The notes under the pieces: generated by a model | Told to the model about the DNA's origin: nothing | Seen by the model: the letters and a program-made list of their open reading frames with translations, nothing else | Databases searched by the model: none | Part shown: positions 1 through 29,863 of the stretch, one piece after another | How positions within the stretch are numbered: the first letter of the stretch is position 1 | Layout: each line of letters opens with the position of its first letter | Position numbers and translations under genes: made by a program | IMG/VR virus record: IMGVR_UViG_3300033463_000048 | Span: 1-39,433 of that record | Origin: a virus | Taxonomy: Duplodnaviria > Heunggongvirae > Uroviricota > Caudoviricetes | Direction: 5' to 3' (one strand) | DNA length: 39,433 nucleotides

Positions 1-2
1 CC

Positions 3-1130
3 CTTTCAGAAAATCCCGCAGTAGACGAGAACTCCTTCCGTCCCTTAACCGCGCCTCAAATCAAAATTAAAAAAGAGAAATTCTCCCGCTCAGAAGCTCG
101 CAAAAACGCCCCACCATTTATTCTTTCCCTACTTGAAGACCTCTTTACCCGTATAGATGAACTTGATTATCAAATTGAGGTTTTCGAACTTAGAATAGGG
201 AAACGTACCGAGCCAATTCGTCAACCCTTACTCGATAGAATTTCAATTGAGCGCAGAAGTAAGTTAGAGAAAGAAGTAGAAAACTGGACTCAACATACCT
301 ATATAAAGTCCCGCCATCTCTTAATCCAACTTCGTTCCGACCAATATACGTTACGCGACTCATACAAACAAACTGTAGGAAATTCCTCAACTGCCCACTC
401 TCCTAACTTTATAGAAGACGATCCGACTTTTGGAGTTGGAATTAATGTTTATCCTCTCGGTTTAAAAAGAGGGGCTAATTTAAAGGAAAACGAGAAAAAA
501 GACGTAGAGCGCGCCGACACCTTAATTTTCAAGCATAATCCATCTCCTTCACTTTATACCCCTAAAGAACTTAAAGTAATTTCAAACTTTATTTGGGAGA
601 ATCAGCGCAATTTTGATGAGCGCGCCACTAAGTTTTACTTTAGTTTTGAAAACGAAGACCATATATATCAACTTATTTTACTTCGGAAATTTTTAGAGAA
701 TTTAGAATTACAAGAAGATTCTACAATTCCTCAACTTTTCGACACTTTAGACTACTATATTGAAGAAGCCGATTTAACCGAGGCCCAACGCGAGATTTTA
801 GACCTTAAATTTCAGCATAAGGAAAACCAAGATATAGCGGCGTATATTAATAGGAAATATGGGAAAAACTATGCGCTTAACTATATATCGACTATCTTTA
901 AGCAAAAGATTATAAAGAAAATTGTAGAAGCGGTTAAACTTCATAGGGAAAAGGTTGAGAACCTTTTCTTTGAAGAGGAATTTAAAAAGTGTAGTTGTTG
1001 CGGAAAGGAGTTACTTAGAAGAGAGGATTTCTTTATGAAGAGAAAGAAGTCTCCAGATGGCTTCAACGGACGCTGTAAAATTTGTGATAGAGAAAAACGT
1101 AAGGAGAAGAAGGAGAAGAATAATGAGTAA
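3..1130 (+). CDS. 5'-truncated protein with a sigma70 region-4-like HTH and a C-terminal Cys4 Zn finger; possible late transcription regulator
   Basis: Frame 3 is open from the window edge to TAA at 1128-1130 (absent from the ORF track because its start is outside the window). It translates to ...LTEAQREILDLKFQHKENQDIAAYINRKYGKNY...KKCSCCGKELL...GRCKICDREKRKE. The stop overlaps the next ATG. Confidence 0.8.
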   Translation, partial: LSENPAVDENSFRPLTAPQIKIKKEKFSRSEARKNAPPFILSLLEDLFTRIDELDYQIEVFELRIGKRTEPIRQPLLDRISIERRSKLEKEVENWTQHTYIKSRHLLIQLRSDQYTLRDSYKQTVGNSSTAHSPNFIEDDPTFGVGINVYPLGLKRGANLKENEKKDVERADTLIFKHNPSPSLYTPKELKVISNFIWENQRNFDERATKFYFSFENEDHIYQLILLRKFLENLELQEDSTIPQLFDTLDYYIEEADLTEAQREILDLKFQHKENQDIAAYINRKYGKNYALNYISTIFKQKIIKKIVEAVKLHREKVENLFFEEEFKKCSCCGKELLRREDFFMKRKKSPDGFNGRCKICDREKRKEKKEKNNE

Positions 1131-1536
1131 GAAGAAACGTGTAGGAGAGTTTTTAGACCTTTTAAACGAACTTTCCGAAGAAGAAATTTTTTCGTTGGGG
1201 AGAGTACTGGGGGTTAAATTTGGGAAATTAGAAATTTTGGACCAAGATGAGAACCCCATTGGGAAAACCTTAGGGGAATTAAGGGATGAGATTGGAGAAG
1301 AAGAACTTAGGAAGAGAAATTATAAAGTTAGAGCAGTTAAGCGAGACGCCGAAGAAATTTTAGCTGAGATTATGGAGACATTTTATAAGGCTAGTTGGGG
1401 CGCGCAGAAAGATATTTTGGAAATTATGAAAGCAAAGCCGAAAAAGAAGGACGTTGTTGAAGACGACAACTGCGCGCTCACCATAAATTCAACTATCCCG
1501 GAGGTAGAATTAAATGGGACTTCAACCGAAAATTAA
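1123..1536 (+). CDS. Hypothetical protein (137 aa, MSKKKRVGEF...)
   Basis: ATG 1123 follows AAGGAG and overlaps the upstream stop region; the track's start at 1057 lies inside the upstream gene. Confidence 0.75.
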   Translation: MSKKKRVGEFLDLLNELSEEEIFSLGRVLGVKFGKLEILDQDENPIGKTLGELRDEIGEEELRKRNYKVRAVKRDAEEILAEIMETFYKASWGAQKDILEIMKAKPKKKDVVEDDNCALTINSTIPEVELNGTSTEN

Positions 1537-2485
1537 GCGTAAGGTTTTATTTAGAGATTGCCCTATATGCGGCAACACTTTAAGTTTAAGCGAGTTCGCG
1601 CCTACCACTTCTATTTTCTATCCTGATGGAGTAATTCCTATTTGCGGCCACTGCATTGATAATTGGCTTAAAGAACAAGATTGGAATTGGGATGCAATTG
1701 ATAAGTTGTGTCAAATGGCTGATATCCCTTTCATTCCTAAAGAGTGGGAAAACTTAAAGGAAATGAGTGAAGATAATCTGTTTGCGCGCTACGCCATGAT
1801 TTGTCAGAAAAGCGAATATTATGGAGTGGGGTGGAAAAAGTATTATGATGAATACCAAGAGTTAAAGAAAAACGGGGATCTTGGCTCTGTTCTTCCTTTA
1901 ATTGGGGATGCTGAACGCCAAGAACTTCAACTTAAATGGGGTAGTAATTATGATGATGAGCAATTAACTTATCTTGAAAACTTATATAAAGGTATCTTAA
2001 CTTCTCAATCTGTTAATGGCGCCCTCCAAGATGACCGCGCACTTAAGATTTGTAAAATCTCGCTTGAAATTGATGAGAGAATTCGTGCGGGCGAAGATTT
2101 TGATAAGCTTCTTGCTTCTCATGACAAACTCGTTAAACAAGCAGACTTTACTCCAACTAATATTAAAAACCTTAATGATTTTGATTCTATAGGTGAACTT
2201 GTTAAGTGGATGGAGAAAAAGGGTTGGCAGGCTCGTTATCATGATGGAGTTACGCGCGATATTGTAGATGAGACAGTTCAAAACATTCAGTCCTTTAATC
2301 AGAGACTTTATACTAATGAAAGTGGTATTAGTGAACAGATTGAAGCGCGCATTGCTTCGTTAAAGAATGTAAAGGATTTGGAAGATAATTTTGGTTCAGA
2401 GAATGAATTTAAACTCGAAGATTATGATAATGAAGGTTATAAAAAATTGATGGAAGAGGAATTTGAGGAGGACGTAGATGAATAA
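1514..2485 (+). CDS. Zn-finger protein directly upstream of TerL; putative terminase small subunit
   Basis: CPIC...CGHC motif at the N-terminus, helical C-terminus, overlaps the TerL start. The function is inferred from position. Confidence 0.5.
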   Translation: MGLQPKIKRKVLFRDCPICGNTLSLSEFAPTTSIFYPDGVIPICGHCIDNWLKEQDWNWDAIDKLCQMADIPFIPKEWENLKEMSEDNLFARYAMICQKSEYYGVGWKKYYDEYQELKKNGDLGSVLPLIGDAERQELQLKWGSNYDDEQLTYLENLYKGILTSQSVNGALQDDRALKICKISLEIDERIRAGEDFDKLLASHDKLVKQADFTPTNIKNLNDFDSIGELVKWMEKKGWQARYHDGVTRDIVDETVQNIQSFNQRLYTNESGISEQIEARIASLKNVKDLEDNFGSENEFKLEDYDNEGYKKLMEEEFEEDVDE

Positions 2486-3050
2486 CTTTATTACTGGAAT
2501 TACTGGTATTAAAGAAGGCGTCATACTTGAGAAAGGGGTTAAACTTAATGAAGAATATTTAGAAGAGAATTTTGATCATATTGGAGATTTATTAAATTAT
2601 TTTATAGATTATCCTGACCTTTTCATTGATATGATTACGCCTGAAGATACGGGATTTCATTTATATTTTTATCAACGTATTTTCTTGCGCGCTATCATGC
2701 GCTTTAGAACAGTTTACATAACCGCGCCTCGTGCTTGGTCTAAATCGTTCTTAACTATTTTAGGTTTATTTTTGCAATGTATCTTTATTCCTGGAAGAAA
2801 GGTTTTCATTTGTACTCCTGGTAAATCTCAGGGTGCGAAGATCGCTAAGGAAAAACTTTTTGAAATTTTTAGACTCTTTCCTTTACTTAGAAAAGAACTA
2901 ATTGGCGGGGAATATGATGAGACTCCTGGTAATTATGGTAAGGACTACGTAGAGCTTCGCTTCCGTAATGGGTCTCAGTTTGATGTAGTTGCGCCTCTCG
3001 ATTCTACCCGTGGTGGACGTCGTAACGGTGGTCTTATTGACGAAGTGCGT
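2478..3050 (+). CDS. terL: Terminase large subunit, exon 1 (ATPase N-terminal part, 191 codons)
   Basis: Q-motif LYFYQRIFL, Walker A-like APRAWSKS, Walker B GLIDEVR ending at U3050; joins in frame to DHEEEMLNTVV at 4180 (spliced product 588 aa). Confidence 0.92.
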
Positions 3051-3084
3051 AAATTTTGTATTATTTTTGTTGAGATGCGAGATT

Positions 3085-3123
3085 CTATTTCTGCTTTATA
3101 TTAGAAATATAAAGGAGGAATAG
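3085..3123 (+). promoter_or_regulatory. Hairpin sequestering the homing endonuclease RBS
   Basis: CTATTTCT(G)CTTTATAT 3085-3101 pairs with ATATAAAG(G)AGGAATAG 3107-3123, burying AGGAGG 3113-3118; analogous to the T4 I-TevI translational-control hairpin. Confidence 0.75.
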
Positions 3124-3127
3124 CAAT

Positions 3128-3970
3128 ATGAAATGCTATATCTACAAAATCGTTAATAAGATTACTAATCAAGTTTATGTTGGGCAAACAACTAACTTGC
3201 AACGCCGATTAGAAAATCATTTGAGCGCTTTACGAAACAATAACCATGTTAATCCAAAATTACAATCTAGTTGGAATAAATATGGGGAAGAAAATTTTGA
3301 AATCACTTCTCAAATATATGATTTAACTAAAGACGAGTTAAATAAAAAAGAAATTGAAGAGATTCAAAAAGAAAACAGTTATGAAAATGGTTTTAATCTA
3401 ACGCTCGGCGGCGACGGTGGAAACACAAGAGGAAATTTAAGCTTTGAAGATTTTTGTTTTATATATTTTGGTATTCAAGAATATGAAGGCTTAACAAATC
3501 GTGTTGCTGATTATCTCGGAATTGATAGTAGTACCGTTTCAGCAATAAAAAGAAAGGCTGCCTATACTTGGTATATTCCAATGGCAGAGGCACTTTCAGA
3601 TGAAGATAAAATTAAATATTTTGAGTTATTTGAAAAAGAATTGGATTTAGCAAATAATCCTCCAAGAATTAAAAAAGCAAATATGTCTGAAAAAGATGTA
3701 ATTGATTTTTTATGTGTTGTTTCTGCATATGGTAGAGGCGCGGAAGCAGCAATGACTCGCTATCTAGATATTTCAAAAGGTTTAAAAGACCATATAGTAA
3801 AAGGCGAGTATAGAAATTACGCTGAAAAGTTTTTATCATTAACAGATTCAGAGATATTTGAAAGAGCAGTACCGATTTTTGAAGATAATAATCTTCAACA
3901 GTATTGCAAACAAAGAATAAAAAAGAATAATGACGTAATACGACCTAACTTCTCATGGATTGCGCACTAA
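3128..3970 (+). CDS. Intron-encoded GIY-YIG homing endonuclease (280 aa)
   Basis: N-terminal YIYKIVNKITNQVYVGQT...R...H, LQSSWNKYGEENF, GFNLTLGG; own RBS; located inside the intron. Confidence 0.92.
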   Translation: MKCYIYKIVNKITNQVYVGQTTNLQRRLENHLSALRNNNHVNPKLQSSWNKYGEENFEITSQIYDLTKDELNKKEIEEIQKENSYENGFNLTLGGDGGNTRGNLSFEDFCFIYFGIQEYEGLTNRVADYLGIDSSTVSAIKRKAAYTWYIPMAEALSDEDKIKYFELFEKELDLANNPPRIKKANMSEKDVIDFLCVVSAYGRGAEAAMTRYLDISKGLKDHIVKGEYRNYAEKFLSLTDSEIFERAVPIFEDNNLQQYCKQRIKKNNDVIRPNFSWIAH

Positions 3971-4179
3971 AAACTCTCTTAATTGCTGGAAACTCCTTCG
4001 GGACAATCAGCAGCCAAGACTTTTAAAAAGTAAGGTTCAACGACTAGTCGAAAGACGTAGGCTCAAGTGAGTCGAAATGGAGAGCACGGTTTGCCCCGTG
4101 AAGATATAGTCTCAACTTTATAGTAATATAAAGCAGTCGAAAGACGGGTATAGATTAACGACCTATACTGAAGAAAATG

Positions 4180-5373
4180 GACCATGAAGAAGAAATGTTA
4201 AATACAGTTGTTATTCCTTTGCTTAACGTAGATCGTCGTCTTCCAACTGGAGAAATAAACGAAAAAGAGCCTAATCGTCAACGTATATATGCAACATCTG
4301 CGGGCGCAAAATCATCGTTCGCATATGATGTATTAATGGATGTTTTTCAAAAGTCTATTATAAATCCAGATGATTACTTCTGTATGGGTTGTGATTATAG
4401 GGTTCCTATGTTACATGGACTTTTACAGAAGAGTTTTATTTACGACTTAAAAACTGATTCTTCTTTTAACCCTAACTCTTTTGCAACCGAATATTTATCA
4501 CTTTGGAGTGGTGGTTCATCAGATGCATGGTTAGATTATGATAGAATTAATAAATATAGAATTTTAAAAAATCCTGAGTGGAAAGTAAAAAATGTAACCA
4601 ACGAAAAAAAATTCCACTTAATTTCAGTAGACGTGGGTGCGATTCATGACCAAACTGTTTGCACTATTTTTAAGGTTAATATTGGTGAGCAAGGAACTTT
4701 TACTTGTTCAGTTACTAATATAATAGTTTTAGGTAAAACCGCAGAAGAAAAAGCCTTTTATCGTCAAGCCATAGATTTAAAACGTTTAATTCAAATTTAT
4801 CAACCGCGTGAGGTTGTAATTGATACAAACGGTATTGGTGTTGGTTTTGGAGAAGTAATGACACAAAGTCAATATGATAGTAAGACAGGAGAATATTATC
4901 CTGCTTATGGCTTCTTTAATGATGATAATTTTAAGAAAATTCAACCACATGATTGTGCAAGAATTTTATATAGTTTTAAAGCTAATTCTACTTTAAAGCC
5001 TAAAATTCAAAGTAATGCTTATACTTTTATTAGTAGCGGACGTGTTCATTTCTTAATTTCTGAACAGAAGGCGCGCTCACTATTACTTGAAACTAAAACT
5101 GGTGCGCACATGAAACCCGAAAATCGCGCAAAACGCTTATTACCGCATGAAATGACTTCTCGTTTAATTGATGAAATGATGAATTTTAAAAGAAAGAAGA
5201 CTGCGGCAGTTAGTGATTTTGTATTGGAACCTATTAACTCCAAATATCCTGATGATAAATTCTATTCTTTCTGTTATGGGCTTTGGCGCATTAAAGAAAT
5301 TGAAGAAGAATATGTTAAGAAATTTAAGAGAAAATTAGAGGGCGCGACACGTCAACTTATATTCTTTAATTAG
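4180..5373 (+). CDS. terL: Terminase large subunit, exon 2 (rest of ATPase plus RNase H-like nuclease, 397 aa)
   Basis: Motif III YATSAG; nuclease acidic residues in ISVDVG, VVIDTNG and PDDKFYS; directly upstream of the portal. The track's ATG at 4177 is the last three intron nucleotides. Confidence 0.92.
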   Translation, partial: DHEEEMLNTVVIPLLNVDRRLPTGEINEKEPNRQRIYATSAGAKSSFAYDVLMDVFQKSIINPDDYFCMGCDYRVPMLHGLLQKSFIYDLKTDSSFNPNSFATEYLSLWSGGSSDAWLDYDRINKYRILKNPEWKVKNVTNEKKFHLISVDVGAIHDQTVCTIFKVNIGEQGTFTCSVTNIIVLGKTAEEKAFYRQAIDLKRLIQIYQPREVVIDTNGIGVGFGEVMTQSQYDSKTGEYYPAYGFFNDDNFKKIQPHDCARILYSFKANSTLKPKIQSNAYTFISSGRVHFLISEQKARSLLLETKTGAHMKPENRAKRLLPHEMTSRLIDEMMNFKRKKTAAVSDFVLEPINSKYPDDKFYSFCYGLWRIKEIEEEYVKKFKRKLEGATRQLIFFN

Positions 5374-5385
5374 GAGGAACTTTAA

Positions 5386-6906
5386 ATGAGTGAAGATATT
5401 AAACTCTCAGTTGGACAGACCGAAGTCGCTGAATTAGATAAAAACGCAGTTGAGCGTTTTACTCTTAGCGAGTTTAAGAAGTCCATTGATGGTATGATTC
5501 TCACGAATCAAAAAGCCTATTCCTCTAAATCACACGGCTATTGGGGCCGTACTTACTTTAAATACACGAAAGAAGAAATCTTTGACATTATAGAAGGCGA
5601 TAATTTACAAGCAAAAATTAGACTTTCTCGCTACTTTTTTGAAAGAAACGGGTACTATCGTCAAATCGTACTTTATTACGCCACAATGCTTGAGTATGTA
5701 GGCATCTTAATTCCCAATCCGCTTAAAGATGCAAAACTCTCCAACTCCAAATTACAGAAAAAGTATAATACGGCGATTAATTTAGTCGAGGGTATGAACT
5801 TACCTACTTTCTTTACAAACTGTGCATGGATGAGTTTAGTTGATGGATGTTATTATGGCCTTATTATAAGTGAAACAGATGACGCTTTTGCTGTAGTAGA
5901 TTTACCAACTGAATATTGTCGAAGCAATTATAAGGACACTCATAATAACGATTTAATCGAGTTAAACCTTGAGTATTTTAGACAAATTGAATCTGACGAG
6001 TACAGAGAAATTTTGTTTAAAACTTATCCAAAATTTATTAAGGCTGCATATGAAAAGTGGATTAGAGGTAAACTTAAATCTTCTTGGGTTTTAATTCCTG
6101 CTTCAATGGGTGTTTGTTTTCCTTTCTTTGATGGAAGACCTGCGCTTTTGAACGTGATTAGAGCCGCACTTTTATATGATGAAGTTAATGATAGTTTAAA
6201 GGATAAACTCACGGACGAGATTAAAAAGATAATTGTTCAACATATTCCTCATATGACAGATGGCGCCTTCTTATTGGAGCCAGAAGAAGCAAAGGAATTA
6301 CATAAGGGCGCGGTAGCGATGTTGGAGAATAATCCTAACGTCGATGTTCTTACTACCTATGCAGATGTTGAAGCAATTGTTTCAAAGACCGGTAATGATA
6401 ATGACGCTAGTTTATTATCTCGTTATGAACAGAATATTTATTCTCAAGGTGGAGTAAGTAAAGAATTGTTCGCGGCTACCGGTAGTTCTGCTATTCCTTC
6501 TTCTCAAAGAGTAACACTTGGAATTATGATGCATTTAGCGGATAAGTTTTCTACGTTTGTTACAAACTTAGTAAACTCAAAATTCGCAATGCCTACTCTT
6601 AACTTTAAATATACAATTCTTCCGATTGCATATTTTAATGAAGATGAATATTTGGATAATGCTTTTAAGCTCGCTAACTCTGGTTATAGTTTTATACTTC
6701 CTACTATCGCCATGGGACTTAGTCAGCGTGATTTAGCTAATGTAAAACAACTTGAGATAGATATACTCCATCTTGATGAATTATTGAAGCCACTTGAATC
6801 TGCTTATAATCCTACTGGTGAAGGGCCAGGACGTCCTAAGAAAGCTTTAGACGAGAAATCTGAAAAGACAGTTCAAAATGAGCAAGTAGCCGCTGGCGAA
6901 AGCTAA
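5386..6906 (+). CDS. Portal protein (506 aa)
   Basis: Size and position after TerL; typical flexible C-tail GPGRPKK; strong AGGAGG RBS. Confidence 0.82.
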   Translation: MSEDIKLSVGQTEVAELDKNAVERFTLSEFKKSIDGMILTNQKAYSSKSHGYWGRTYFKYTKEEIFDIIEGDNLQAKIRLSRYFFERNGYYRQIVLYYATMLEYVGILIPNPLKDAKLSNSKLQKKYNTAINLVEGMNLPTFFTNCAWMSLVDGCYYGLIISETDDAFAVVDLPTEYCRSNYKDTHNNDLIELNLEYFRQIESDEYREILFKTYPKFIKAAYEKWIRGKLKSSWVLIPASMGVCFPFFDGRPALLNVIRAALLYDEVNDSLKDKLTDEIKKIIVQHIPHMTDGAFLLEPEEAKELHKGAVAMLENNPNVDVLTTYADVEAIVSKTGNDNDASLLSRYEQNIYSQGGVSKELFAATGSSAIPSSQRVTLGIMMHLADKFSTFVTNLVNSKFAMPTLNFKYTILPIAYFNEDEYLDNAFKLANSGYSFILPTIAMGLSQRDLANVKQLEIDILHLDELLKPLESAYNPTGEGPGRPKKALDEKSEKTVQNEQVAAGES

Positions 6907-6916
6907 GGGAGAAACT

Positions 6917-8287
6917 ATGAAAGATTTATGTTTTAAAATCCCTGTTATAACCTATGGTGTACTTACTGCACCTACGGAAGCAAGCCAAACTACTTCTCGT
7001 GGTAGAGTTCGTATCTTTTATAGAGGACTAAATCGAAACGGTACATATATTACCGATGAATTCGCGCAGAAGTTGGTTGGTACTCTTCCATATACTCCTG
7101 TAAAGGGTATATATGGAGAAACAGATTTTACCGACCACGGTGAAGAACGTAGTGAAGGGCGCATTTATGGCGTCGTTCCTGAAAATCCAAACTTCGCGTG
7201 GGAAGACTTTACTGATGAAGATGGAGTTACTCGTACATATGCTTGTTGCGATATACTTTTATATACCGCACTTTATGAAGAAGCTAGTGAAATCTTTGGT
7301 AAAGGTGAATCGATGGAACTTTACTTGCGCTCTATAGAAGGAGATTGGCAAGTTAAGGAAGGAAAAAAATGCTTTGTTTTTAGTGATGGATGTTTCTTAG
7401 GGCTTCAGGCCTTAGGAGATAACGTAGAGCCTTGTTTCGAAGGTGCTGCTTTCTATGATTTTAATCAAAGTATATATGCAATATTAGAAAAAGCCAATGG
7501 AGGAAACCCAATGGACGACTTGAACAAAGAAGTCTTTGAAGAAGAGAAAGCTTCGGAAGAGATTACAGAAGTAACTTCTGAAGAAACTACTTCTGAGGTA
7601 GACTCTTATGAAGAAGGTGGAGCCGGAGACGGCGGAACTGATGGTGGAAGTAATGCTGAGGGTGGCGATGATGCTGAAGGTGATGGCGCGGAAGAAACTG
7701 AGGGTGAAGGCCCTTTGAGAGCGACTGATCCTCAAAATACTGATGGCGACAATGATGGCGATGATAATAATGAAGCTGTTGAAGAAGCCGTTGAAGCCGC
7801 TGAAGAAGTTGCTGAAACTGGAGGAAACCCTAACATAACCATTAAGAAAAAGAAAGACGAAGAAAATTTTGCGCTCGAAAGCAAAATTAATGAGTTAGAA
7901 TCTTTAAACTCCACTTTACAGTTGGAAAGAGATACTTTTTCTGCTCAACTTGAGGAAGCTAAAGGAGAAATTAGCTCTCTTAGGGAACAGATTAAAACTC
8001 TCTCTGAATTTAAAAACGCTGTTGAACTTGAAAAGAAGAAGGCAGTTATTGATGAGTATACAGGCAGAGTATCTGATGAAGTAATTCAGAAGTATGCTGA
8101 TTCTCTCGATGCATATACTGTAGAGGAATTAGATATGAAGCTATGCTACGAGATAAAGAAAGGTAATCCTTCTGCTTTCTTTGGTCAGAAGAATAGCGAA
8201 TCGGGTAATATAATCCCGAAACAGACGCAACAGAGCAACTACGCAGATCCTATCGTAGATTTGCTCAAGAAGTATGAGAATAAATAA
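6917..8287 (+). CDS. Prohead protease/scaffold protein (456 aa)
   Basis: Globular N-terminal ~190 aa (NRNG, FTDH, ESMEL, GLQALG..VEPCFEGA), an acidic Gly-rich linker and a C-terminal coiled coil; lies between the portal and head genes. Confidence 0.72.
   Translation: MKDLCFKIPVITYGVLTAPTEASQTTSRGRVRIFYRGLNRNGTYITDEFAQKLVGTLPYTPVKGIYGETDFTDHGEERSEGRIYGVVPENPNFAWEDFTDEDGVTRTYACCDILLYTALYEEASEIFGKGESMELYLRSIEGDWQVKEGKKCFVFSDGCFLGLQALGDNVEPCFEGAAFYDFNQSIYAILEKANGGNPMDDLNKEVFEEEKASEEITEVTSEETTSEVDSYEEGGAGDGGTDGGSNAEGGDDAEGDGAEETEGEGPLRATDPQNTDGDNDGDDNNEAVEEAVEAAEEVAETGGNPNITIKKKKDEENFALESKINELESLNSTLQLERDTFSAQLEEAKGEISSLREQIKTLSEFKNAVELEKKKAVIDEYTGRVSDEVIQKYADSLDAYTVEELDMKLCYEIKKGNPSAFFGQKNSESGNIIPKQTQQSNYADPIVDLLKKYENK
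7511..8287 (+). CDS. Putative nested in-frame scaffolding protein (258 aa, MDDLNKEV...)
   Basis: GGAGG at 7499-7503, 7 nt before an in-frame ATG at 7511, exactly where the globular domain ends. Confidence 0.5.
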   Translation: MDDLNKEVFEEEKASEEITEVTSEETTSEVDSYEEGGAGDGGTDGGSNAEGGDDAEGDGAEETEGEGPLRATDPQNTDGDNDGDDNNEAVEEAVEAAEEVAETGGNPNITIKKKKDEENFALESKINELESLNSTLQLERDTFSAQLEEAKGEISSLREQIKTLSEFKNAVELEKKKAVIDEYTGRVSDEVIQKYADSLDAYTVEELDMKLCYEIKKGNPSAFFGQKNSESGNIIPKQTQQSNYADPIVDLLKKYENK

Positions 8288-8304
8288 TTTGGAGGTGCCT
8301 TAAT

Positions 8305-8862
8305 ATGGCTCTTGCTAGATTGACAATCGATGGTTATGGTCAGCTTGAACTTAACCAGGTTGCTTTTAGACGTGATGGTCGTATCGAAGCACAGTGCAAG
8401 ATCGCGGCTGCCATTACAACTTATATTGAGAATGGTATGCTTCTTGCAGTCGATAAGGCTAACAAGACTGTTGGATATCCTGCAGCAGATGGTACCGATA
8501 AGCTTATTGCTTTGAACTATACTGCTGAGCATATGTATGATGAGAGAACTCCTGGTCTCAAGAACTTCAAGCTTGATCAGGGTACGTTCCTTCCTCGTCT
8601 TGGATATCTTGCAATTGGTGATCGCTTTACGACTAACTGTATTGCATACGACAATACCGAAACTGGTTTTACGACTGATGCAAATGTAAAGACTAAGCTC
8701 GCTGCTTTTGCTACTACTCCAGTTTATGGTGGTATCTGCACCAACGGTGCAATTAAGGTTTCTGCTTCGAAGCCTACATATGGTCCTGTATTACAAGTTG
8801 CTGATTATACTACGATGCCTGACGGCACTGTTGGCGTCAAGTTCGTTGTGTTGGCTGCATAA
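8305..8862 (+). CDS. Head decoration / minor capsid protein (185 aa)
   Basis: Beta-rich, Ala/Thr-rich small protein between scaffold and MCP, with highly-expressed-style codon usage and a GGAGG RBS. Confidence 0.6.
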   Translation: MALARLTIDGYGQLELNQVAFRRDGRIEAQCKIAAAITTYIENGMLLAVDKANKTVGYPAADGTDKLIALNYTAEHMYDERTPGLKNFKLDQGTFLPRLGYLAIGDRFTTNCIAYDNTETGFTTDANVKTKLAAFATTPVYGGICTNGAIKVSASKPTYGPVLQVADYTTMPDGTVGVKFVVLAA

Positions 8863-8876
8863 GGGGGTAAGAGATA

Positions 8877-9935
8877 ATGGATGCTAATACTATGAAAAAT
8901 CTTAAAACTCTTGCTAAATGCGTAGTAAACCGTAAGGGATACGATACCTATTCTGCTGACACGGCTGAAAAGGCATTTAGTGAAGAATTTGCTAAGTTGA
9001 CGGGTTCCGTTAATAATTTCCTTCGCAACAAGTATGATGTATTTGATATCATCATTACTGCTGCGGATGATATTGTTCCTAAGAAAGTTATGGAACAGTT
9101 TGGTTCTTTCGCTGAAGTTCTCCAGGTAGCAAATGGCGATAAGCCACTCTTCAAGAGAGGTGGACTTGGACGTCAGCGTGCTAAGAAGTTCCTTACTCAG
9201 GTTGGTCTTAGTGGCGTTTACGAGTCTTTCAGACTTGATACTGAAACCTTCACGATCGGCGTTAAGTCTATCGGTGGTGCTGTATCCATTGACTTTGTAA
9301 GACTTATCGATGGCGCTGAGTCTCTTACCGAGTTCATGGATGTTCTTATTGAAGCTCAGGTAGACGCTATTTACAGTGAAATCCAGGCTGCTCTTATGGC
9401 TGCTGTAAATGCAAGCGAAATGCCTGCTAAGAATAAGGTTTCCGGTACTTATAGTGCTTCTGCACTTCAGGGTATTATCAATACGGTTAAGGCTTATGGC
9501 GAGGGCGCAGTTATTGTTGCTTCTCCTGAGTTCGTAGATGCAATGGGTCCTGACGCTATTGTTCCTGCTATTGCAAGTGCTGCACAGGCTATCTACCCTA
9601 TTGATGATATTGAGTCTATCCACAATACTGGACGTATCAGACTTTTCCGTGGTACTCCTATTGTTGAGTTGAGACAGTCCTTCTTGAATAACAAGAATAC
9701 TCAGTATCTTGTAAATCCTCAGTATGCTTACATTCTTCCTTCCGGACGTGAGAAGATCGTTAAGCTTGTTATGGAAGGTTCTACTCAGTTGTGGAGTTAT
9801 GAGAATACCGACCAGAGCGTTGAAGTTAATACCTATCGTATGATTGGTACTGCTATCCTCGCATACAATAACTGGGGTATTTATCAGAATACTGATATCG
9901 CTACTACTGAATGGTATGACGGTTCTATTCTTTAA
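8877..9935 (+). CDS. Major capsid protein (352 aa)
   Basis: Size, position, strongly biased codons and a strong downstream terminator; HK97-like pattern (IVASPEF, RLFRGTPIVEL). Confidence 0.82.
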   Translation: MDANTMKNLKTLAKCVVNRKGYDTYSADTAEKAFSEEFAKLTGSVNNFLRNKYDVFDIIITAADDIVPKKVMEQFGSFAEVLQVANGDKPLFKRGGLGRQRAKKFLTQVGLSGVYESFRLDTETFTIGVKSIGGAVSIDFVRLIDGAESLTEFMDVLIEAQVDAIYSEIQAALMAAVNASEMPAKNKVSGTYSASALQGIINTVKAYGEGAVIVASPEFVDAMGPDAIVPAIASAAQAIYPIDDIESIHNTGRIRLFRGTPIVELRQSFLNNKNTQYLVNPQYAYILPSGREKIVKLVMEGSTQLWSYENTDQSVEVNTYRMIGTAILAYNNWGIYQNTDIATTEWYDGSIL

Positions 9936-9949
9936 GATTTAATTTAAAG

Positions 9950-9988
9950 GAGGGGTGGAGGCAACTCTACCCCTCTATTTTCTATTTT
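9950..9988 (+). terminator. Rho-independent terminator after MCP
   Basis: GAGGGGTGGAG-GCAA-CTCTACCCCTC followed by TATTTTCTATTTT. Confidence 0.8.
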
Positions 9989-10031
9989 ATTAATTTAGCC
10001 CAAAGGGTGAGTAAAAAGGAGATTTTTAATT

Positions 10032-10544
10032 ATGAAAGAAAATATGGTTATGGTAAGAAACGCAATGGAACAGCAAATCGTTATCGATATTCCTGAGTAT
10101 AATTTGCGTAGAACCTGGACGAAATGTGGTGCTCAGTTCCCTATTGATAGAGATATTCTTGAGCAGGCATATTACAGACCTGGCGTAGAGTATTTGTTTA
10201 CGCATGGTATGTTAGTTACAGACGACAAGCAATTCCTTTATGATGTTGGACTTATCACCGACATGGAAGAAGAGAAAGAAATTATTATGCTCGATGATAA
10301 GTTGAAGAAGAGACTTATTGGCGCAATGCCTATGAGAGAAGTAGAGGAATATTTTAATAAATTTAGTCCTGAGCAGATTGAGGAAGTAGTTAATTATGCT
10401 ATCCGCAATTATAAGGATTTGAACAATAGTAAGATTGAATTTTTTGGTCAGAAGGGTAATAAGGATATGTTGCGCGCTATCAAAAATTATAAGGATAGCC
10501 TTGAACCACTTCCTGAAGCCCCTACCGCTAAGGAGAAGAGATAA
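10032..10544 (+). CDS. Hypothetical virion morphogenesis protein (170 aa)
   Basis: AAGGAG RBS; first gene after MCP; translationally coupled to the next gene. Confidence 0.7.
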   Translation: MKENMVMVRNAMEQQIVIDIPEYNLRRTWTKCGAQFPIDRDILEQAYYRPGVEYLFTHGMLVTDDKQFLYDVGLITDMEEEKEIIMLDDKLKKRLIGAMPMREVEEYFNKFSPEQIEEVVNYAIRNYKDLNNSKIEFFGQKGNKDMLRAIKNYKDSLEPLPEAPTAKEKR

Positions 10545-10984
10545 TGACACCTTGCTCAAGAATTTACAAAGCTTTTCTTAGCCGAATTCTTGAAGATGAA
10601 TGGGATCATTGGCTCCAGGAAGAGGCTGAGGAAGACTGGTATGAGATTATGAATGCGGCAATTCCGTGGTTTAAATTTCCGCGTCATAGTTTAGCGCATA
10701 CTACAGAGGGTTTTGACGAAGACCTTACTGAAATGGAAATTCAAATTATCGCAAACTATATGAAGTGCGAATGGTTGAATAGATGTATTATGACTTGGGA
10801 GAATATTAAACCACTTTACGAAGAAAAAGATTTCTCACAAGCCAACTTACTTGATAAGTTAAATAAAGCCCTTGTATCTGAAAGAAAATACGCATTAAAG
10901 ATGGAAAGTTATTATTATCGTTCTGTTGATGGGAAGCCTTATAAATATAGTAGTTTAGCTGGCGCCGTCACTGAAGAAGAATAA
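10544..10984 (+). CDS. Putative head-tail adaptor (146 aa)
   Basis: Helical protein in the head-completion position; TAATG coupling on both sides. The function is inferred from synteny. Confidence 0.5.
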   Translation: MTPCSRIYKAFLSRILEDEWDHWLQEEAEEDWYEIMNAAIPWFKFPRHSLAHTTEGFDEDLTEMEIQIIANYMKCEWLNRCIMTWENIKPLYEEKDFSQANLLDKLNKALVSERKYALKMESYYYRSVDGKPYKYSSLAGAVTEEE

Positions 10985-11244
10985 TGATACCTGATGTTCA
11001 AGAAGGATTAAAGAATAGATTTAAGAATCGTCTTTTTGGCGTTTTATGTGAGTTTGAGAAGAATGGAGAATGGGAGAAATACCTAGACTCCATTCTAATC
11101 GAACTTGAGGGATACAAGGAAGAAGAAAGAACAATAAATTGGTATGTATTATATTCAAAACTTTGCGCCCTTCGTCGTCTGAAGTATGAATACTTTAGAA
11201 GCACAATTTTTGAATGTATGAATTTAGTGGAGCGAGGTTGGTAA
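10984..11244 (+). CDS. Hypothetical protein (86 aa)
   Basis: TAATG overlaps at both ends within the connector cluster. Confidence 0.7.
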   Translation: MIPDVQEGLKNRFKNRLFGVLCEFEKNGEWEKYLDSILIELEGYKEEERTINWYVLYSKLCALRRLKYEYFRSTIFECMNLVERGW

Positions 11245-11981
11245 TGGGCGAATATGATATCTATTATAAGAGATTAAACCGTTATGGCTATGATTATCAA
11301 TCTCGCATACAGTCTGAGAGAGAAAGAAATTTTGATTTGTATCTTTTGAAGTCTGTATACAGAGTTGAATTTAGATATGACGGTGAGGTATATGAGGGTA
11401 CTCTTGAGAGGAATACAGAAGATGTAACTCAGACTACCTCTTATTTATTAACCAGAACACGTGATGTAATACCTGGTGGAACCATTTTATTAATTCCTGG
11501 TTTTAAGGGTGAGGGATTGATTCCTTGGTTGGTATGGTATCAGTTAGAGCGTGAAGCAAAAGGTTATAATAAATATATGATGTTGAAAATGAATTATAAC
11601 CTTGTATGGCGCGACAATAATGGAGAAGAGTATAATCAATGGGTTTATTTTAGAGGATTGAGTACCGAGCCTATTAGAGATAAGGTTCGTTCTCAGACTC
11701 GTACTAATTCTACTTATCTTGAAAGCACAAATCTTCATATGTTTATTACGCAGTTTAATCCTAACCTTCAGCGCGATAATTATTTTGAAATTGAAAAAGA
11801 TGGTATTGTGCTTGCATATTGGATTACAGAAATTGATATGGTTTCTACTCCTGGTGTGATGTATTGTTCTGTTGATCAACGCCATAGAATTGACTTTACG
11901 CCTGCGCCTGAACAAACTCCTCAAGATGATCCTGATGATTTCTACTGGCTTAATGGTGGGGAGGATAGTTCTAATGGTTAG
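11244..11981 (+). CDS. Putative head closure/connector protein (245 aa, MGEYDIYY...)
   Basis: ATG 11244 overlaps the upstream TAA and follows GAGG; beta-rich; connector position. Confidence 0.5.
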   Translation: MGEYDIYYKRLNRYGYDYQSRIQSERERNFDLYLLKSVYRVEFRYDGEVYEGTLERNTEDVTQTTSYLLTRTRDVIPGGTILLIPGFKGEGLIPWLVWYQLEREAKGYNKYMMLKMNYNLVWRDNNGEEYNQWVYFRGLSTEPIRDKVRSQTRTNSTYLESTNLHMFITQFNPNLQRDNYFEIEKDGIVLAYWITEIDMVSTPGVMYCSVDQRHRIDFTPAPEQTPQDDPDDFYWLNGGEDSSNG

Positions 11982-12462
11982 AAATTGTAGAGAAATTGGA
12001 GAAAATCTTCAACTTATAGTAAAGCGTTTGATTGCAAATGATACGCTTGTAAAATATTTATATTATTCTGATCCCGATCCGCTTAGTAAAACAAATTTAA
12101 CTGATGCGCAAAAACGGGAAGAAATTTTTGAGAAATTAATTCGTATTACTCCACGTGTTGGCGCGGATGAAACGGCTAAAAGTATTGTTATTGTGCGCGC
12201 CATTAGTGGAATAGGTTTAAATGAAAACCCTGAATTTAGAAGAGTTTTAATCTCTGTAGAGGTTATAACTCCACTCTCTCAATGGAAAATTAAAAGTGAT
12301 AATTTGCGCCCTTATGCTATTTTAGGGGAAATTCAAGAATCGCTTGATGGTAAGACTGTAAATGGACTTGGCAAAATGGTTGGCGGAGATTTTGAACTAA
12401 GTTTTCTTACAGAAGAAGTATCTTGCTTTGAAATGAAGTTTGAGATAATTTCTTATGATTGA
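11974..12462 (+). CDS. Putative tail completion/terminator protein (162 aa, MVRNCREIG...)
   Basis: ATG 11974 follows GGAGG; the C-terminal beta pattern (FELSFL...CFEMKFEI) fits tail-terminator folds; position before the tail genes. Confidence 0.5.
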   Translation: MVRNCREIGENLQLIVKRLIANDTLVKYLYYSDPDPLSKTNLTDAQKREEIFEKLIRITPRVGADETAKSIVIVRAISGIGLNENPEFRRVLISVEVITPLSQWKIKSDNLRPYAILGEIQESLDGKTVNGLGKMVGGDFELSFLTEEVSCFEMKFEIISYD

Positions 12463-13213
12463 TAATTTATCTTCTGTATTTATGGGGTTGCCTATATATT
12501 TTAAGGGCAACTCCTATGTTTATCCGCCAAAAGTTAAGGACACGGCAAATAGAGATTTTGAAAAATATATAACTATTTTAACCATGTCTGAAGATGATGT
12601 AAAAGACATTTTTAAAGAAGAACCATTAAAGGAATATCCTTCTCCATATAAGATAATGTATAAGAATTTTGTAATGGATGCGCAACTAAGAAATTTAACT
12701 TTGAGCGCTTTTGAGTTCTTTTTACACGAACCTGTTACTTTTATTGCCGATAAGGGAATTATAATCTTAGGCGATTTGGAAACTCTTTTAAAACAAGGTA
12801 AGAAAATTGATGAAATTTTCTATATTGAAGAAAAAGATTATCCAAGATTTCAAAATTTAATTCGAGTAGCGGTTGGAATAGAAGAAGAGGAAATTGAAGA
12901 AGTAGACCCTAATGAAGATCCGCGCGTTACCGAACTAAAGAAAAAATTCAAAGAAAGCAAAAAGACGGTTGCAAAGATTAAACAAAAGAGAGGTGATTCT
13001 CTAAAATTTTATGATTGTTTAGTTGCAATTTGTTGTATGCAACTTGGCATAAATCCACTTAATATTGGAGAGTTAAGCTATAGTGCTATTTCACCGCTTA
13101 TGAATAAATTTCAAAGCAAAGAAGCTTATGATATTTCTTCAATGGGTGCGATGATGGGTACTATAGATACAAAGAAAAATACAATCGAATATTGGATTGG
13201 GAATTCGAAATAA
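12455..13213 (+). CDS. Hypothetical tail-region protein (252 aa), possibly the tail assembly chaperone
   Basis: Overlaps the upstream gene; helical with a charged linker; lies upstream of the MTP rather than downstream. Confidence 0.55.
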   Translation: MIDNLSSVFMGLPIYFKGNSYVYPPKVKDTANRDFEKYITILTMSEDDVKDIFKEEPLKEYPSPYKIMYKNFVMDAQLRNLTLSAFEFFLHEPVTFIADKGIIILGDLETLLKQGKKIDEIFYIEEKDYPRFQNLIRVAVGIEEEEIEEVDPNEDPRVTELKKKFKESKKTVAKIKQKRGDSLKFYDCLVAICCMQLGINPLNIGELSYSAISPLMNKFQSKEAYDISSMGAMMGTIDTKKNTIEYWIGNSK

Positions 13214-13243
13214 GTTTATTAATTCATACGGAGGAAAAACTGT

Positions 13244-14107
13244 ATGGCTATGTCTATTCTTGACCGTTATGGCATCAAGGAAGCTGCGAATATTACTTTC
13301 TATGAACTTGATGGCCTCGGCAGACCTACTAACCCAGTTCTTTTTATTGATACCGCTAAAACTTCTACAATTGAGCAGACTGCTGAAAATACTTCTGCTC
13401 GTGGTGGTTATGGTAATCCTGAATTGATTTCATGGGACTTTGGTAAGGAGATTACTGTTGCTCTTACTGATGCACTTTATTCTCCTAAGTCTATGGCCAT
13501 TATGTTCGGTGATGGTACAGTTAGAAGTTATAATAGTACTACTCAGGCACTTGTTAATGATAGCGCATACTTGATGCGTACGGAAGTATTTACTGCTACT
13601 GCTTCTGTTACCGCTGGTGGTTCTGCTACAGATGCTGGCTGGAGTTCTAAGTATATCGGACCTGATGGAAAGGCTTATAATAAGATTAATCCTAAGTTCT
13701 ATACAGAAGTAGGCAACTCTGTTGCTTCTACTGCTTTGGTATCTGCTACTAAGTATTTCTGCACCTATGACCTTGAAGTTGATGCAAAGGTAATTGAAAT
13801 TTCTGCAGATACTTTCCCTGGAACTTATTACGTAGTAGGCGATACTTATGCTCGTCCTTTTGCTGGTGGTAAGGATGAATTCTTCCAGTTCATCATTCCT
13901 AAGGCTAAGATTCAGGCTGAGAATACAATTACAATGGAAGCTGATGGCGATCCTTCAGTATTCAATTTGAATCTTCGTGTTCTTCGTCCTGAAGATGGTG
14001 TTATGATTAAGCTTGTTCAGTATAATCTTAAGGGTGGTACTGATTATACTGGCACATCTTCTACGATTTATCACAACCACATTCTTAACCCTCAGGCTAA
14101 TGGCTAA
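13244..14107 (+). CDS. Major tail (tube) protein (287 aa)
   Basis: Thr/Ala/Gly-rich, highly-expressed codon style, GGAGG RBS, followed by a terminator; motifs YGIKE, ARGGYGNPELISWD and FIIPKAK. Confidence 0.78.
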   Translation: MAMSILDRYGIKEAANITFYELDGLGRPTNPVLFIDTAKTSTIEQTAENTSARGGYGNPELISWDFGKEITVALTDALYSPKSMAIMFGDGTVRSYNSTTQALVNDSAYLMRTEVFTATASVTAGGSATDAGWSSKYIGPDGKAYNKINPKFYTEVGNSVASTALVSATKYFCTYDLEVDAKVIEISADTFPGTYYVVGDTYARPFAGGKDEFFQFIIPKAKIQAENTITMEADGDPSVFNLNLRVLRPEDGVMIKLVQYNLKGGTDYTGTSSTIYHNHILNPQANG

Positions 14108-14116
14108 TGGAGGTAT

Positions 14117-14146
14117 AGGCGGGTAGGGCAACCTGCCCGCCTTTTT
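14117..14146 (+). terminator. Rho-independent terminator after MTP
   Basis: AGGCGGGTAGG-GCAA-CCTGCCCGCCT followed by TTTT. Confidence 0.8.
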
Positions 14147-14151
14147 CAATT

Positions 14152-14937
14152 ATGAATGAGTTTGGTTTAAAAGAGTTCTATGATGTAACTTTGAGGACTC
14201 TAAATGAAATACATATTAAAGATAGAGTTTATAGTCCTGGCGAAGTGGTTGCGCTATTTGATAAGATTATAATTTCTAACTTTGATGAAAATAGAAAATT
14301 CGTGACCGCGCATGGTGGTTATGATGATAGAGATTTAATTTGGTGGGAGACAACAAGGAATTTAAATTTAACCTTCTCCCAAGGAATTTTTTCAAAAACT
14401 CAATTTGCTTTAATGCAAAATGGGAAGTTGTTTGACTTAGAGGATGCGACAAATTATATCTCACGGCGCGAACGTCTTGAGAGCGATGAAGAAGGGATTG
14501 TAAAAACAAAAGATGCGATTAGCGAAAAATTTGCTTTTTTCGTTTATGATACGGATTACAAACCGATTGAGTATAGTTTAATAGATAGTAATACATTATC
14601 TATTGAAACTCCTTTTAAAGAAGTTATTATAGATTTTTATACAGAGTATAATAAAAATTCTATGTTATTGCGAATTGGGCAACCATTTAGTGAAAATAGA
14701 TACTTCTTATTAGAAGGAAAAACGAGAGTAAAGGACGATATAACAGGACAAACTAAAACAGGAATTATTATAATTCCTAAGTTAAAGCTAGTGTCTGACT
14801 TATCTATGAGGCTTGGACAAGATGCTAATCCGGTAGTAGGAGTATTTCAAGGAGTGGCTTGTCCGGTTGAGGATCGAGGAACGAAAAGAGTTTTAGATAT
14901 AATTCTCCTTGAGGATGATATAGATAGTGATATATAG
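14152..14937 (+). CDS. Tail-tube-like paralogue of the major tail protein (261 aa)
   Basis: Aligns by eye to the MTP: FGLKE vs YGIKE; AHGGYDDRDLIWWE vs ARGGYGNPELISWD; IIIIPKLKL...DANPVV vs FIIPKAKI...DGDPSV. Confidence 0.65.
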   Translation: MNEFGLKEFYDVTLRTLNEIHIKDRVYSPGEVVALFDKIIISNFDENRKFVTAHGGYDDRDLIWWETTRNLNLTFSQGIFSKTQFALMQNGKLFDLEDATNYISRRERLESDEEGIVKTKDAISEKFAFFVYDTDYKPIEYSLIDSNTLSIETPFKEVIIDFYTEYNKNSMLLRIGQPFSENRYFLLEGKTRVKDDITGQTKTGIIIIPKLKLVSDLSMRLGQDANPVVGVFQGVACPVEDRGTKRVLDIILLEDDIDSDI

Positions 14938-14969
14938 TCAGCACTAGTATATGGTGCTGACTATTTTTT
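14934..14969 (+). terminator. Rho-independent terminator before TMP
   Basis: ATAGTCAGCACTA-GTATA-TGGTGCTGACTAT followed by TTTTT, directly before the TMP RBS AGGAGG. Confidence 0.75.
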
Positions 14970-14983
14970 AGGAGGAGAGAAAG

Positions 14984-22786: not shown

Positions 22787-22798
22787 AAAATTTACTTA

Positions 22799-22825
22799 GG
22801 GGTAGAGATTGAAAATCTCTACCCC
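22799..22825 (+). other. Strong hairpin without a U-tract between TMP and Dit
   Basis: GGGGTAGAGATT-GAA-AATCTCTACCCC, followed directly by the AAGGAG RBS of Dit; possibly an mRNA processing or stabilising stem. Confidence 0.6.
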
Positions 22826-22838
22826 AAAAGGAGTGGAT

Positions 22839-23906
22839 ATGTATATTAGAAATGATGAATTTACCGGTTTTACTTTTAACGGAATTCATAGTTCAACTCT
22901 AGGTATTTATCGCGTATCAGAATCAAATAGACATACATATCTACTCACTCCTTCAATTAAGGATACGAAAGTAGATGTGCCTGGAACTGATTTTGATATT
23001 TATTTTAATACAAAATATGGAGAGTATGAATTTGAAATCTCTATTGCTTTCGCAGATTTAACTGAACTTCAATTTAGACGCTTTTCAGAATTTTATAAAA
23101 CCAAAAGTCCATTCCCTTTAATTTTTGATGAAAATCCATATAAAGTTTATATGGCAAAAGGTAGTGGCGCAGTTGATTTAAAATATGTATCTTTTGAAAA
23201 TGATGGCAAGCGTTGGTATGGTGGAGAGGCAAAATTAAAGTTTGTATGTAGAACTCCCTATGCTTTTTCGAGATTTAATTTTTTAGATAATTTTGAGAAA
23301 GCGAATTTAGAAGAGTGGCAGCAAACAGTTAATGATGGAACTGTAATGCAGAGCGGATATATTGCTGATCCTACAGATACTAGTCAGATTGTATATGACG
23401 AAGATGCAGATGGAAAAGTTGAATTTGAAGATGAAGTTAATAATTTTATAAATAAAGAATTATGGGAAGAAGCAAGTGATATACAAGAAGAAGGACAGTA
23501 TAATAAACCTTATGTAGAAAATGGAAAGGTAAAAATTAAGATTTATAATAGTGGTGATGTTCCAATGCCGATTTCAATACGGTTAAGATTTATAGATGAT
23601 TACATAGTTCCTTGCGCGCTATCGACTGAGGAAGACCCCACTCGAGTTTTGACTTGGAATGGGATAAGTAGAGATAAGTCAGATACTAAACTAAAAGCCG
23701 CGCAAGATAAATATGTAAATATAGATACAAATATTAATAGTGTAAATGGAGAAGATGAGTCTTATAGAAATACCTATCGTTCTTACCTTCAGTATTTTAG
23801 TGGAAATTTTATAACCGCGCCAATTGGTGAGACTACTTTGGTATTTTCTACTATAGAGATACTCCCATATATAGACGGAGTATTTTATAGATTTCGTTAT
23901 CTTTAA
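22839..23906 (+). CDS. Distal tail protein (Dit, 355 aa, MYIRNDEF...)
   Basis: AAGGAG RBS before ATG 22839; FTFNGIHSSTLGI, LIFDENPYKVY and FVCRTPYAFS are typical of siphophage Dit N-domains; follows TMP. Confidence 0.8.
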   Translation: MYIRNDEFTGFTFNGIHSSTLGIYRVSESNRHTYLLTPSIKDTKVDVPGTDFDIYFNTKYGEYEFEISIAFADLTELQFRRFSEFYKTKSPFPLIFDENPYKVYMAKGSGAVDLKYVSFENDGKRWYGGEAKLKFVCRTPYAFSRFNFLDNFEKANLEEWQQTVNDGTVMQSGYIADPTDTSQIVYDEDADGKVEFEDEVNNFINKELWEEASDIQEEGQYNKPYVENGKVKIKIYNSGDVPMPISIRLRFIDDYIVPCALSTEEDPTRVLTWNGISRDKSDTKLKAAQDKYVNIDTNINSVNGEDESYRNTYRSYLQYFSGNFITAPIGETTLVFSTIEILPYIDGVFYRFRYL

Positions 23907-29862: not shown

Positions 29863-29863
29863 A

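Follow-up and report, generated by a model that had tools for sequence, protein, structure and literature searches.

Phages are expected to lose short palindromes, and the question raised by the stretch of DNA considered here is why one of them should be present in large excess. The stretch (39,433 nucleotides, in the following the window) makes up the initial 39.4 kb of an IMG/VR virus record of 103,433 bp, IMGVR_UViG_3300033463_000048, which comes from bovine gut metagenomes, has a G+C content of 34.8% and belongs to a siphophage that encodes a portal, a capsid-type protein and a tape measure of 2600 aa. A sequence-only reading had described an over-representation of the palindrome GCGC and had proposed that a GCGC-directed system of methylation, biased repair or recombination was writing these sites into the genome, or that a phage protein used them as dispersed binding sites. 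In the present study GCGC was found not to be the unit; the trait is a cooperative clustering of G and C with a preference for CG/GC alternation, and this clustering characterises the phage family and not the bacteria sampled.

The excess of GCGC was counted in the stretch originally flagged and in the window as a whole:

51..2994: flagged stretch, with 18 loci that comprise 25 GCGC starts, 7x the number expected from base composition; no other 3 kb of the window is as dense
1..39433: whole window, with 163 GCGC (4.5x), 108 CGCG (3.0x) and 103 all-G/C runs of at least 6 bp (2.2x)

Every GCGC position claimed for the first 3 kb proved exact, the 25 starts including seven overlapping GCGCGC. Base composition predicts 3.5 GCGC in these 3 kb (Poisson p 9e-14), and 500 first-order Markov simulations gave 4.1 +/- 2.1 and never more than 12; GGCC and CCGG, said to be rare in the same stretch, occur there twice and once, respectively. 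For the window 36.5 GCGC are expected from composition and 49.5 +/- 7 from a first-order Markov model. The over-representation is genome-wide, as had been claimed (474 GCGC in the whole genome vs 94 expected, 5.0x), and GCGC is the most over-represented 4-mer of the genome, 3.7x above the first-order Markov expectation. Its described density in the minus-strand block and its spread over all codon phases (165/176/113 in the three phases of the genome) were likewise recovered.

After shuffling of synonymous codons within genes, GCGC remained at 2.43x (z 23.6) with all three codon phases raised 2.1-2.7x, and a third-base shuffle that keeps the protein as well as the per-gene dinucleotide counts left an excess of 1.78x (z 18.4). 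The sequence-only reading had named disappearance of the excess after codon and dinucleotide correction as speaking against its proposal, and the excess did not disappear. Codon usage and amino-acid composition are ruled out as causes by the two kinds of shuffle, dinucleotide bias by the Markov models together with the dinucleotide-keeping shuffle, and local GC heterogeneity by the survival of the run excess in 1-kb local shuffles. In non-coding DNA (5.4 kb) GCGC stands at 5.15x. Against a second-order Markov model it falls to 1.36x, because the trinucleotides GCG and CGC are themselves the most enriched (1.65-1.86x). Also enriched in the genome are CGCG (3.4x), GCGCG (10x) and GCGCGC (23x), and CGCC and CCGC are raised too, while homopolymers of G or C are not enriched. 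GGCC is depleted together with CTAG, CATG, TCGA, AGCT, GATC, ACGT and GTAC (all eight 4-bp palindromes at 0.29-0.63x), which is what exposure to restriction should lead to in a phage.

The idea of GCGC as the target does not survive a look at its neighbours. Flanked by A or T on both sides, GCGC (WGCGCW) is just 1.6-2.0x enriched and CGCG (WCGCGW) is depleted (0.4-0.8x); in the count that puts these two at 1.9x and 0.6x, WGCGCGCW reaches 20x. In the window 97 of the 163 GCGC lie inside all-G/C runs of at least 6 bp and 31 stand alone between A/T; conversely, GCGC or CGCG is contained in 80 of the 103 runs of this length. Over a null of local composition, runs of at least 6 bp with one of these two words are 7.4x enriched, compared with 0.9x for runs without either. 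The excess of all-G/C runs rises with length from 0.95x at 4 bp to 2x at 6, 3.9x at 7 and 5.1x at 8. Since the excess of GCGC sits in all-G/C runs and not in lone words, the phenomenon is one of cooperative G/C clustering. The preference for alternation is seen at fourfold-degenerate sites, where the alternating base is used in 47-62% of cases in the contexts CG_GC, GC_CG, GG_GC and GC_CC, compared with a G+C of 12-20% in other contexts; across all contexts G+C at these sites spans about 8-66%.

Cluster positions follow a Poisson pattern (median gap 215.5 vs 215.8 expected, coefficient of variation of the gaps about 1), by which regularly spaced elements are ruled out. Hairpins were rejected as well, with 62 inverted pairs within 60 nucleotides (nt) vs 62 direct pairs and 50.6 +/- 6.2 after permutation. 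Examples of a local inverted pair and of a longer palindrome are:

29984..30015: CGCGCGC and GCGCGCG, 18 nt apart inside a gene; local inverted pair
27620..27627: GGCGCGCC, an 8-bp all-G/C palindrome with 7 copies in the genome vs 0.09 expected from composition

The frequency of GGCGCGCC is only about 2x above the prediction from its own 7-mers, 8-mer palindromes in general are about as frequent as their own 7-mers predict, and no 5-7-mer rises more than about 1.4x above what a maximal-order Markov model predicts for it. Palindromy as such was discarded, amounting to just 1.25-1.6x among all-G/C 6-mers and to less than 1 in two relatives discussed below (G011 and G015), as was a Chi-like oriented motif, the coding-strand asymmetries (GGCG 271 vs CGCC 135) matching the prediction from the G>C skew. 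Among the ten all-G/C 4-mers the order of enrichment in GCGC-rich genomes follows that of nearest-neighbour stacking energy (Spearman -0.83 to -0.93).

More than 1447 portal relatives were found, down to 44% identity, the closest to the phage having 94%, 89% and 70% identity; a single-protein scan of IMG/VR recovered none of these closest ones. In 56 loci of relatives of at least 10 kb (30-48% G+C), GCGC shows a median of 3.19x (interquartile range 2.7-3.8) and runs of at least 6 bp stand at 2.22x, compared with 0.62x and 0.80x in 32 arbitrary low-GC viral contigs serving as controls (Mann-Whitney p about 1e-11). Words of the (GCC)n type are raised family-wide, too (median 2.95x vs 1.79x in controls). 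Among GenBank phages no portal is closer than 28% identity (nearest 23-28%), so that a cultured model is not known. Little GCGC excess is seen in Phass-1 and Enterococcus phage EF1 (1.4x and 1.3x). Phass-1 is filed by GenBank under 'code 15 clade', and a second distant portal homologue of 28% identity with seven in-frame TAG codons (G006:C19:3568-4842) was met in a metagenome-assembled genome (MAG) named Muribaculaceae, so that this phage, too, is probably TAG-recoded like Phass-1.

Two complete or near-complete relatives, G011 (the 109,575-bp record behind locus L077, with direct terminal repeats) and G012 (behind locus L080), have no GATC site, CGCG at 0.05x and ACGT at 0.06x, and are also low in CATG (0.1x), GCGC (0.2x) and GGCC (0.2-0.3x). 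So unusually broad a purge of 4-bp palindromes amounts to strong restriction avoidance and implies hosts rich in type II restriction systems. Both keep a 1.8-2.3x excess of all-G/C runs, which comes from GCCGC/GCGGC and CCGCC/GGCGG (4.4-5.6x), words of a type that contain CGC or GCG yet avoid all four G/C palindromic 4-mers; runs without GCGC or CGCG reach 2.1-2.7x in GCGC-purging relatives vs 0.9-1.3x in GCGC-rich genomes. As the purging relatives keep their clusters, GCGC is dispensable and clustering is the conserved trait. A further relative, G015, is intermediate and favours GCGGCC, CGGCCG and GCGGCCGC. The preferred palindromes thus differ by lineage, being (GC)n and GGCGCGCC in the phage, GCGGCCGC in G015 and GCCCGGGC in G013, G016 and G017. 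Across 51 relatives compensation between (GC)n and (GCC)n gave no overall correlation (rho 0.03), and a real compensation between words is weakly supported, by just three independent lineages. The word GCCCGGGC occurs 8-10 times at roughly 1-kb spacing in G016 (51.6-58.2 kb), G017 (0.7-6.7 kb) and G013 (94.4-103.5 kb), is usually preceded by a T-run (ttttGCCCGGGCg) and is confined to one region of 7-9 kb per genome. It differs from the diffuse clusters and has the look of a regulatory motif that is discrete and regional; the window does not contain it.

Relatives of the phage had been binned into MAGs assigned to Bacillales, Staphylococcaceae, Faecalibacillus, Bacilli, Clostridium, Lachnospiraceae, Muribaculaceae, Bacteroidales and Methanobrevibacter. 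The loci L081-L090 are whole-phage contigs of the family lying in MAGs of at least nine unrelated taxa, one of them archaeal, and composition-based binning evidently misplaces phages of this family. The rpoB-bearing chromosomal contigs of nine bins holding relatives, which may not be the hosts, have GCGC at 0.35-1.66x without a run excess, and in 40 genomes taken in equal measure from two Bacillota classes the median is 0.8x and the highest value 1.8x, again without a run excess. In prokaryotes GCGCGC-type patterns are generally suppressed (PMC4060949).

Gains and losses were followed in trios polarised by an outgroup at 5-20% divergence, the tips differing by 1-2%; the trios were drawn from close relatives of one another other than the phage's own nearest kin. 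Because parsimony in its simple form overcounts gains in places rich in G/C, rates were corrected for mis-polarisation. In these trios 14 GCGC were gained and 16 of 162 sites lost; gains about equal losses, and hence the turnover is at equilibrium and the sites are not conserved. On the short branches, changes from A/T to G/C (W to S) at fourfold sites had a rate of 0.0075 when isolated (95% confidence interval (CI) 0.003-0.012) and of 0.0192 when making a run of at least 5 (95% CI 0.008-0.030), about 2.6x the isolated rate, and changes in the opposite direction (S to W) had a rate of 0.038 in both contexts. With W to S raised and S to W equal, clustering is therefore kept by extra gain beside G/C and not by protection from loss; the latter, as it might arise from a stable duplex with less deamination, was rejected on the equal S to W rates in and out of clusters on short branches. 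The rates predict an equilibrium G+C of 0.165 and 0.335 at fourfold sites, where 0.132 and 0.293 were observed, with small counts (46 and 42). Of the writing system proposed by the sequence-only reading, a process that writes G and C fits the raised W to S rate beside runs, but GCGC as its target and methylation as its means are unsupported.

Not all genes share the excess, and the genes that stand apart, from longest-ORF (open reading frame) calls made in this analysis, are:

8877..9935, plus strand: virion structural (capsid-type) gene, 42% GC; 2 GCGC sites, 0.99x
13244..14107, plus strand: late structural-module gene; 1 GCGC site, 0.72x
14984-22786, plus strand: tape-measure gene, 2600 aa
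18001..21000, plus strand: tape-measure interior, 29% GC; one GCGC, no CGCG, hardly any G/C clusters; longest poor stretch in the window
genome 73029-73853, 83056-83868 and 54397-55485: free-standing GIY-YIG genes, 26-29% G+C; 0, 0 and 1 GCGC

The first two genes and the portal gene (GCGC 1.9x) are presumably the most highly expressed structural genes, and they lack the GCGC excess. A fixed set of dispersed protein-binding sites, the second explanation that had been offered, is unlikely in view of this absence, the Poisson spacing and the quick turnover. GCGC at about chance level in the GIY-YIG genes is what one would expect of mobile genes that arrived too recently to have taken on the signature.

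The explanation that we favour, tentatively and with somewhat less than even confidence, is a non-adaptive, neighbour-dependent substitution bias intrinsic to the replication and recombination machinery of the lineage, with restriction avoidance superimposed on it. In the lineage a silent or non-coding A/T is much likelier to become, and to stay, G or C when flanked on both sides by G/C, the favoured new base is the one that continues the CG/GC alternation, and the outcome is Poisson-scattered all-G/C runs of 6-8 bp with fast turnover, mostly (GC)n. The source of the bias could be replication error or biased mismatch correction, and restriction avoidance would prune particular palindromes host by host. 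This explanation is preferred because coding and non-coding DNA behave alike, the clusters are scattered as Poisson events and turn over fast, the rates predict the composition, the trait is independent of the bacterial background, and a precedent of equal size exists in chloroplasts (PMC9339276). The machinery proposed comprises a DnaE-type polymerase lacking an epsilon proofreader, primase, DnaB, gyrase, RecJ-like and UvrD-like proteins, ligase, a Sak4-like ATPase and a RuvC-like nuclease, of which the polymerase reaches into the window:

36699..40703, minus strand: DnaE-type DNA polymerase III alpha; the window holds the C-terminal 3' two-thirds (36699..39433), the 5' end lies beyond the window
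genome 48307-52542, minus strand: GyrA (full-length, with a gyrase-type C-terminal beta-propeller) and GyrB; beyond the window

Also encoded are a RecJ-like exonuclease, a Toprim primase, a DnaB helicase and an AAA_24 (Sak4-like) ATPase, and, as further DNA-handling genes, a UvrD-like helicase, an ATP-dependent ligase, a deoxynucleoside monophosphate (dNMP) kinase and a RuvC-like nuclease. An epsilon-type (RNase_T) proofreading exonuclease was not found in the phage genome or in four whole relatives. Every whole relative checked has its own replisome and GyrA, the latter being present in Phass-1 as well. We infer a mutational or repair-based cause for which the replisome is responsible; the DnaE-type polymerase, lacking an epsilon proofreader, would then be linked to the bias.

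Several observations weigh against a substitution bias of this kind. The confidence intervals of the two short-branch W to S rates overlap. On the long outgroup branches clustered S sites changed at 0.33 vs 0.46 (loss about 0.7x) and W sites gained at 0.14 vs 0.08 (gain about 1.7x), a pattern that fits symmetric selection or a conversion-like bias of about 4Nes ~ 1; the divergence data fit mutation bias and weak fixation bias or biased conversion alike and cannot decide between them. The alternating base is preferred to the alternative G or C (62% vs 3%) more sharply than simple mispair stabilisation predicts. Phass-1 shows, next to its low GCGC, a run excess of just 1.3x despite a similar polymerase and gyrase. 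Moreover, persistence of the trait in an old and diverse family, in the face of the prokaryotic suppression of GCGCGC (PMC4060949), is what selection would give, too.

Selection is indeed the main rival, possible in our estimate but on balance rather unlikely: the clusters would be selected, stable and often self-complementary blocks of G/C whose density matters, not their position or word, and which may serve as duplex-stability clamps, as gyrase supercoil sinks, in nucleation of priming or annealing, or in transcript pairing. Conservation of the trait over the more than 1447 portal relatives, spanning 30-48% GC, is in its favour, as are the cooperative, threshold-like excess from about 6 bp, the ranking of 4-mers by stacking energy in GCGC-rich genomes, the retained run excess of the relatives that purge GCGC and CGCG, which use the next most stable words, the long-branch gains and losses with their fit to a symmetric fixation bias, and the presence of both GyrA and GyrB in the phage. 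However, Poisson spacing with some very long gaps, lack of positional conservation, fast turnover and a loss that is not slowed on short branches are not what selection leads one to expect, and the presumably most highly expressed structural genes are without excess. The (GCC)n words are enriched family-wide and compensation is weak; GC_CG fourfold sites use C in 4% of cases, though C is more stable there than A or T; local pairing is not in excess; and a reader protein for the clusters was not identified. It seems doubtful, if conceivable, that the clusters are a selected, density-dependent feature of this very large family of uncultured siphophages from gut and rumen, in the manner of a phage counterpart of the highly iterated palindromes (HIPs) of cyanobacteria, which would be read by gyrase, primase or annealing proteins or act via duplex stability, with the word of each lineage set by the palindromes its host restricts.

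Two further explanations place the cause in a methylase or in the host. A HhaI-type GCGC methyltransferase acting with very-short-patch or mismatch repair, in the host or elsewhere, might convert near-sites to GCGC as supposed for HIP1, and the lineage-specific G/C palindromes recall the 'alternate HIPs' which follow their cognate methyltransferases in cyanobacteria (PMC4390886). This origin, which the sequence-only reading had put forward, is nevertheless very improbable, given that no 4-bp word is the unit and that the deamination neighbours GTGC and GCAC are not depleted (0.97x by composition, 0.98x vs a second-order Markov model). Neither C5 (PF00145) nor D12 (PF02086) methyltransferase was found in the phage genome or in whole relatives, nor Vsr (PF03852) in the phage genome (G000), G011, G013, G014 or G015, and an N4/N6 methyltransferase (PF01555) is present only in the relatives G014 and G018. 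The trait also spans relatives with necessarily different hosts, as follows from their very different restriction-avoidance profiles, and the chromosomal signature expected was absent from all 49 bacterial genomes that were sampled. Host mimicry, by which host replication and repair would have ameliorated the phage towards the oligonucleotide signature of the host, agrees with the frequent following of host signatures by phage signatures, and the SH3_3 domain of the phage lysin is a hint of a Gram-positive host. It is the least credible explanation of all when set against the low GCGC of the nine chromosomal bins and of the 40 Bacillota genomes, the suppression of GCGCGC-type patterns in prokaryotes in general (PMC4060949) and the phage's own replisome.

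Hypermodified DNA was also considered and judged unlikely; a thymidylate-synthase-type hydroxymethylase was not found in the search, and the avoidance of other palindromes resembles that of phages with unmodified DNA. Two glycosyltransferases and a kinase nevertheless lie amid genes of DNA metabolism:

genome 52603-53334 and 74456-75433, minus strand: glycosyltransferases GT8 and GT2
genome 73942-74478: T4-gp1-like dNMP kinase

Returning to the substitution bias, its closest parallel is AT-rich chloroplast DNA (Morton: PMC9339276, PMC8821512), in which, as in the phage, the composition of silent and non-coding sites depends strongly on the flanks and context-specific rates, once measured, predict context-specific composition. 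In chloroplast non-coding DNA the hexanucleotide context shifts the equilibrium A+T from 36% to 83% (PMC9339276), an effect similar in size to the span of fourfold G+C in the phage. Unlike in chloroplasts, the effect in the phage is cooperative and yields discrete all-G/C runs, mainly (GC)n, is tied to one phage lineage with its own replisome, where a mutational cause is inferred, and coexists with strong restriction avoidance of other palindromes. Cyanobacterial HIP1 (GCGATCGC) and the alternate HIPs (Elhai 2015, PMC4390886), for which an origin by biased repair has been proposed (PMC4390886), resemble the clusters as G/C-rich palindromes in excess in all frames and in intergenic DNA, replaced in some lineages by other G/C palindromes. 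In contrast to HIPs, the phage has no single defined word, isolated GCGC being barely enriched and 8-mers roughly as frequent as their sub-words predict; it encodes no cognate methyltransferase, one-step neighbours carry no repair signature, and the carrier is a phage instead of a cell. With restriction avoidance as known from phages the genome shares the depletion of the eight palindromes listed above, whereas GCGC and CGCG are in excess in most members of the family. Z-DNA-prone G-C tracts are, like the words of the phage, strictly alternating (GC)3-4, and the phage encodes gyrase; yet its tracts are shorter than the B-to-Z transition usually needs, relatives keep clustering by means of non-alternating GCCGC and CCGCC, and tracts of the Z-DNA type are generally suppressed in prokaryotes (PMC4060949). 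An explanation by Z-DNA was rejected, since strict alternation is not kept family-wide (G011, G012 and G015 use GCCGC, CCGCC and GCGGCC).

As to the remaining content of the genome, portal, capsid-type protein and tape measure lie on the plus strand, and a block of replication and nucleotide genes lies on the minus strand; the length of the tape measure would imply a very long tail. The nucleotide genes include a dUTPase/dCTP-deaminase-like protein and NrdD with its activase, the gyrA and gyrB genes adjoin the GT8 glycosyltransferase and the UvrD-like helicase, and several GIY-YIG homing endonucleases are present besides the two glycosyltransferases. In window 4030-4112 a stretch of 40-83 nt matches Escherichia phage Pollock (100% over 40 nt) and also the HNH endonuclease region of a Klebsiella phage.

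No description of a G/C-cluster trait in phages was found in the literature. The family of abundant gut and rumen phages described here runs opposite both to the loss of palindromes and to the prokaryotic suppression of GCGCGC. If a private mutational or repair bias is the true cause, it would offer a natural example, and a clean one, of a signature written by the replisome itself, and it would be a warning for phage binning and host prediction by k-mer signature, because relatives ended up in bins of Bacilli, Clostridia, Bacteroidales and even Methanobrevibacter. Under selection the clusters would instead represent a new kind of dispersed genome element. On either reading the counts of GCGC and CGCG provide a simple marker of the family, and the loss of these words in some members marks hosts with matching restriction systems.

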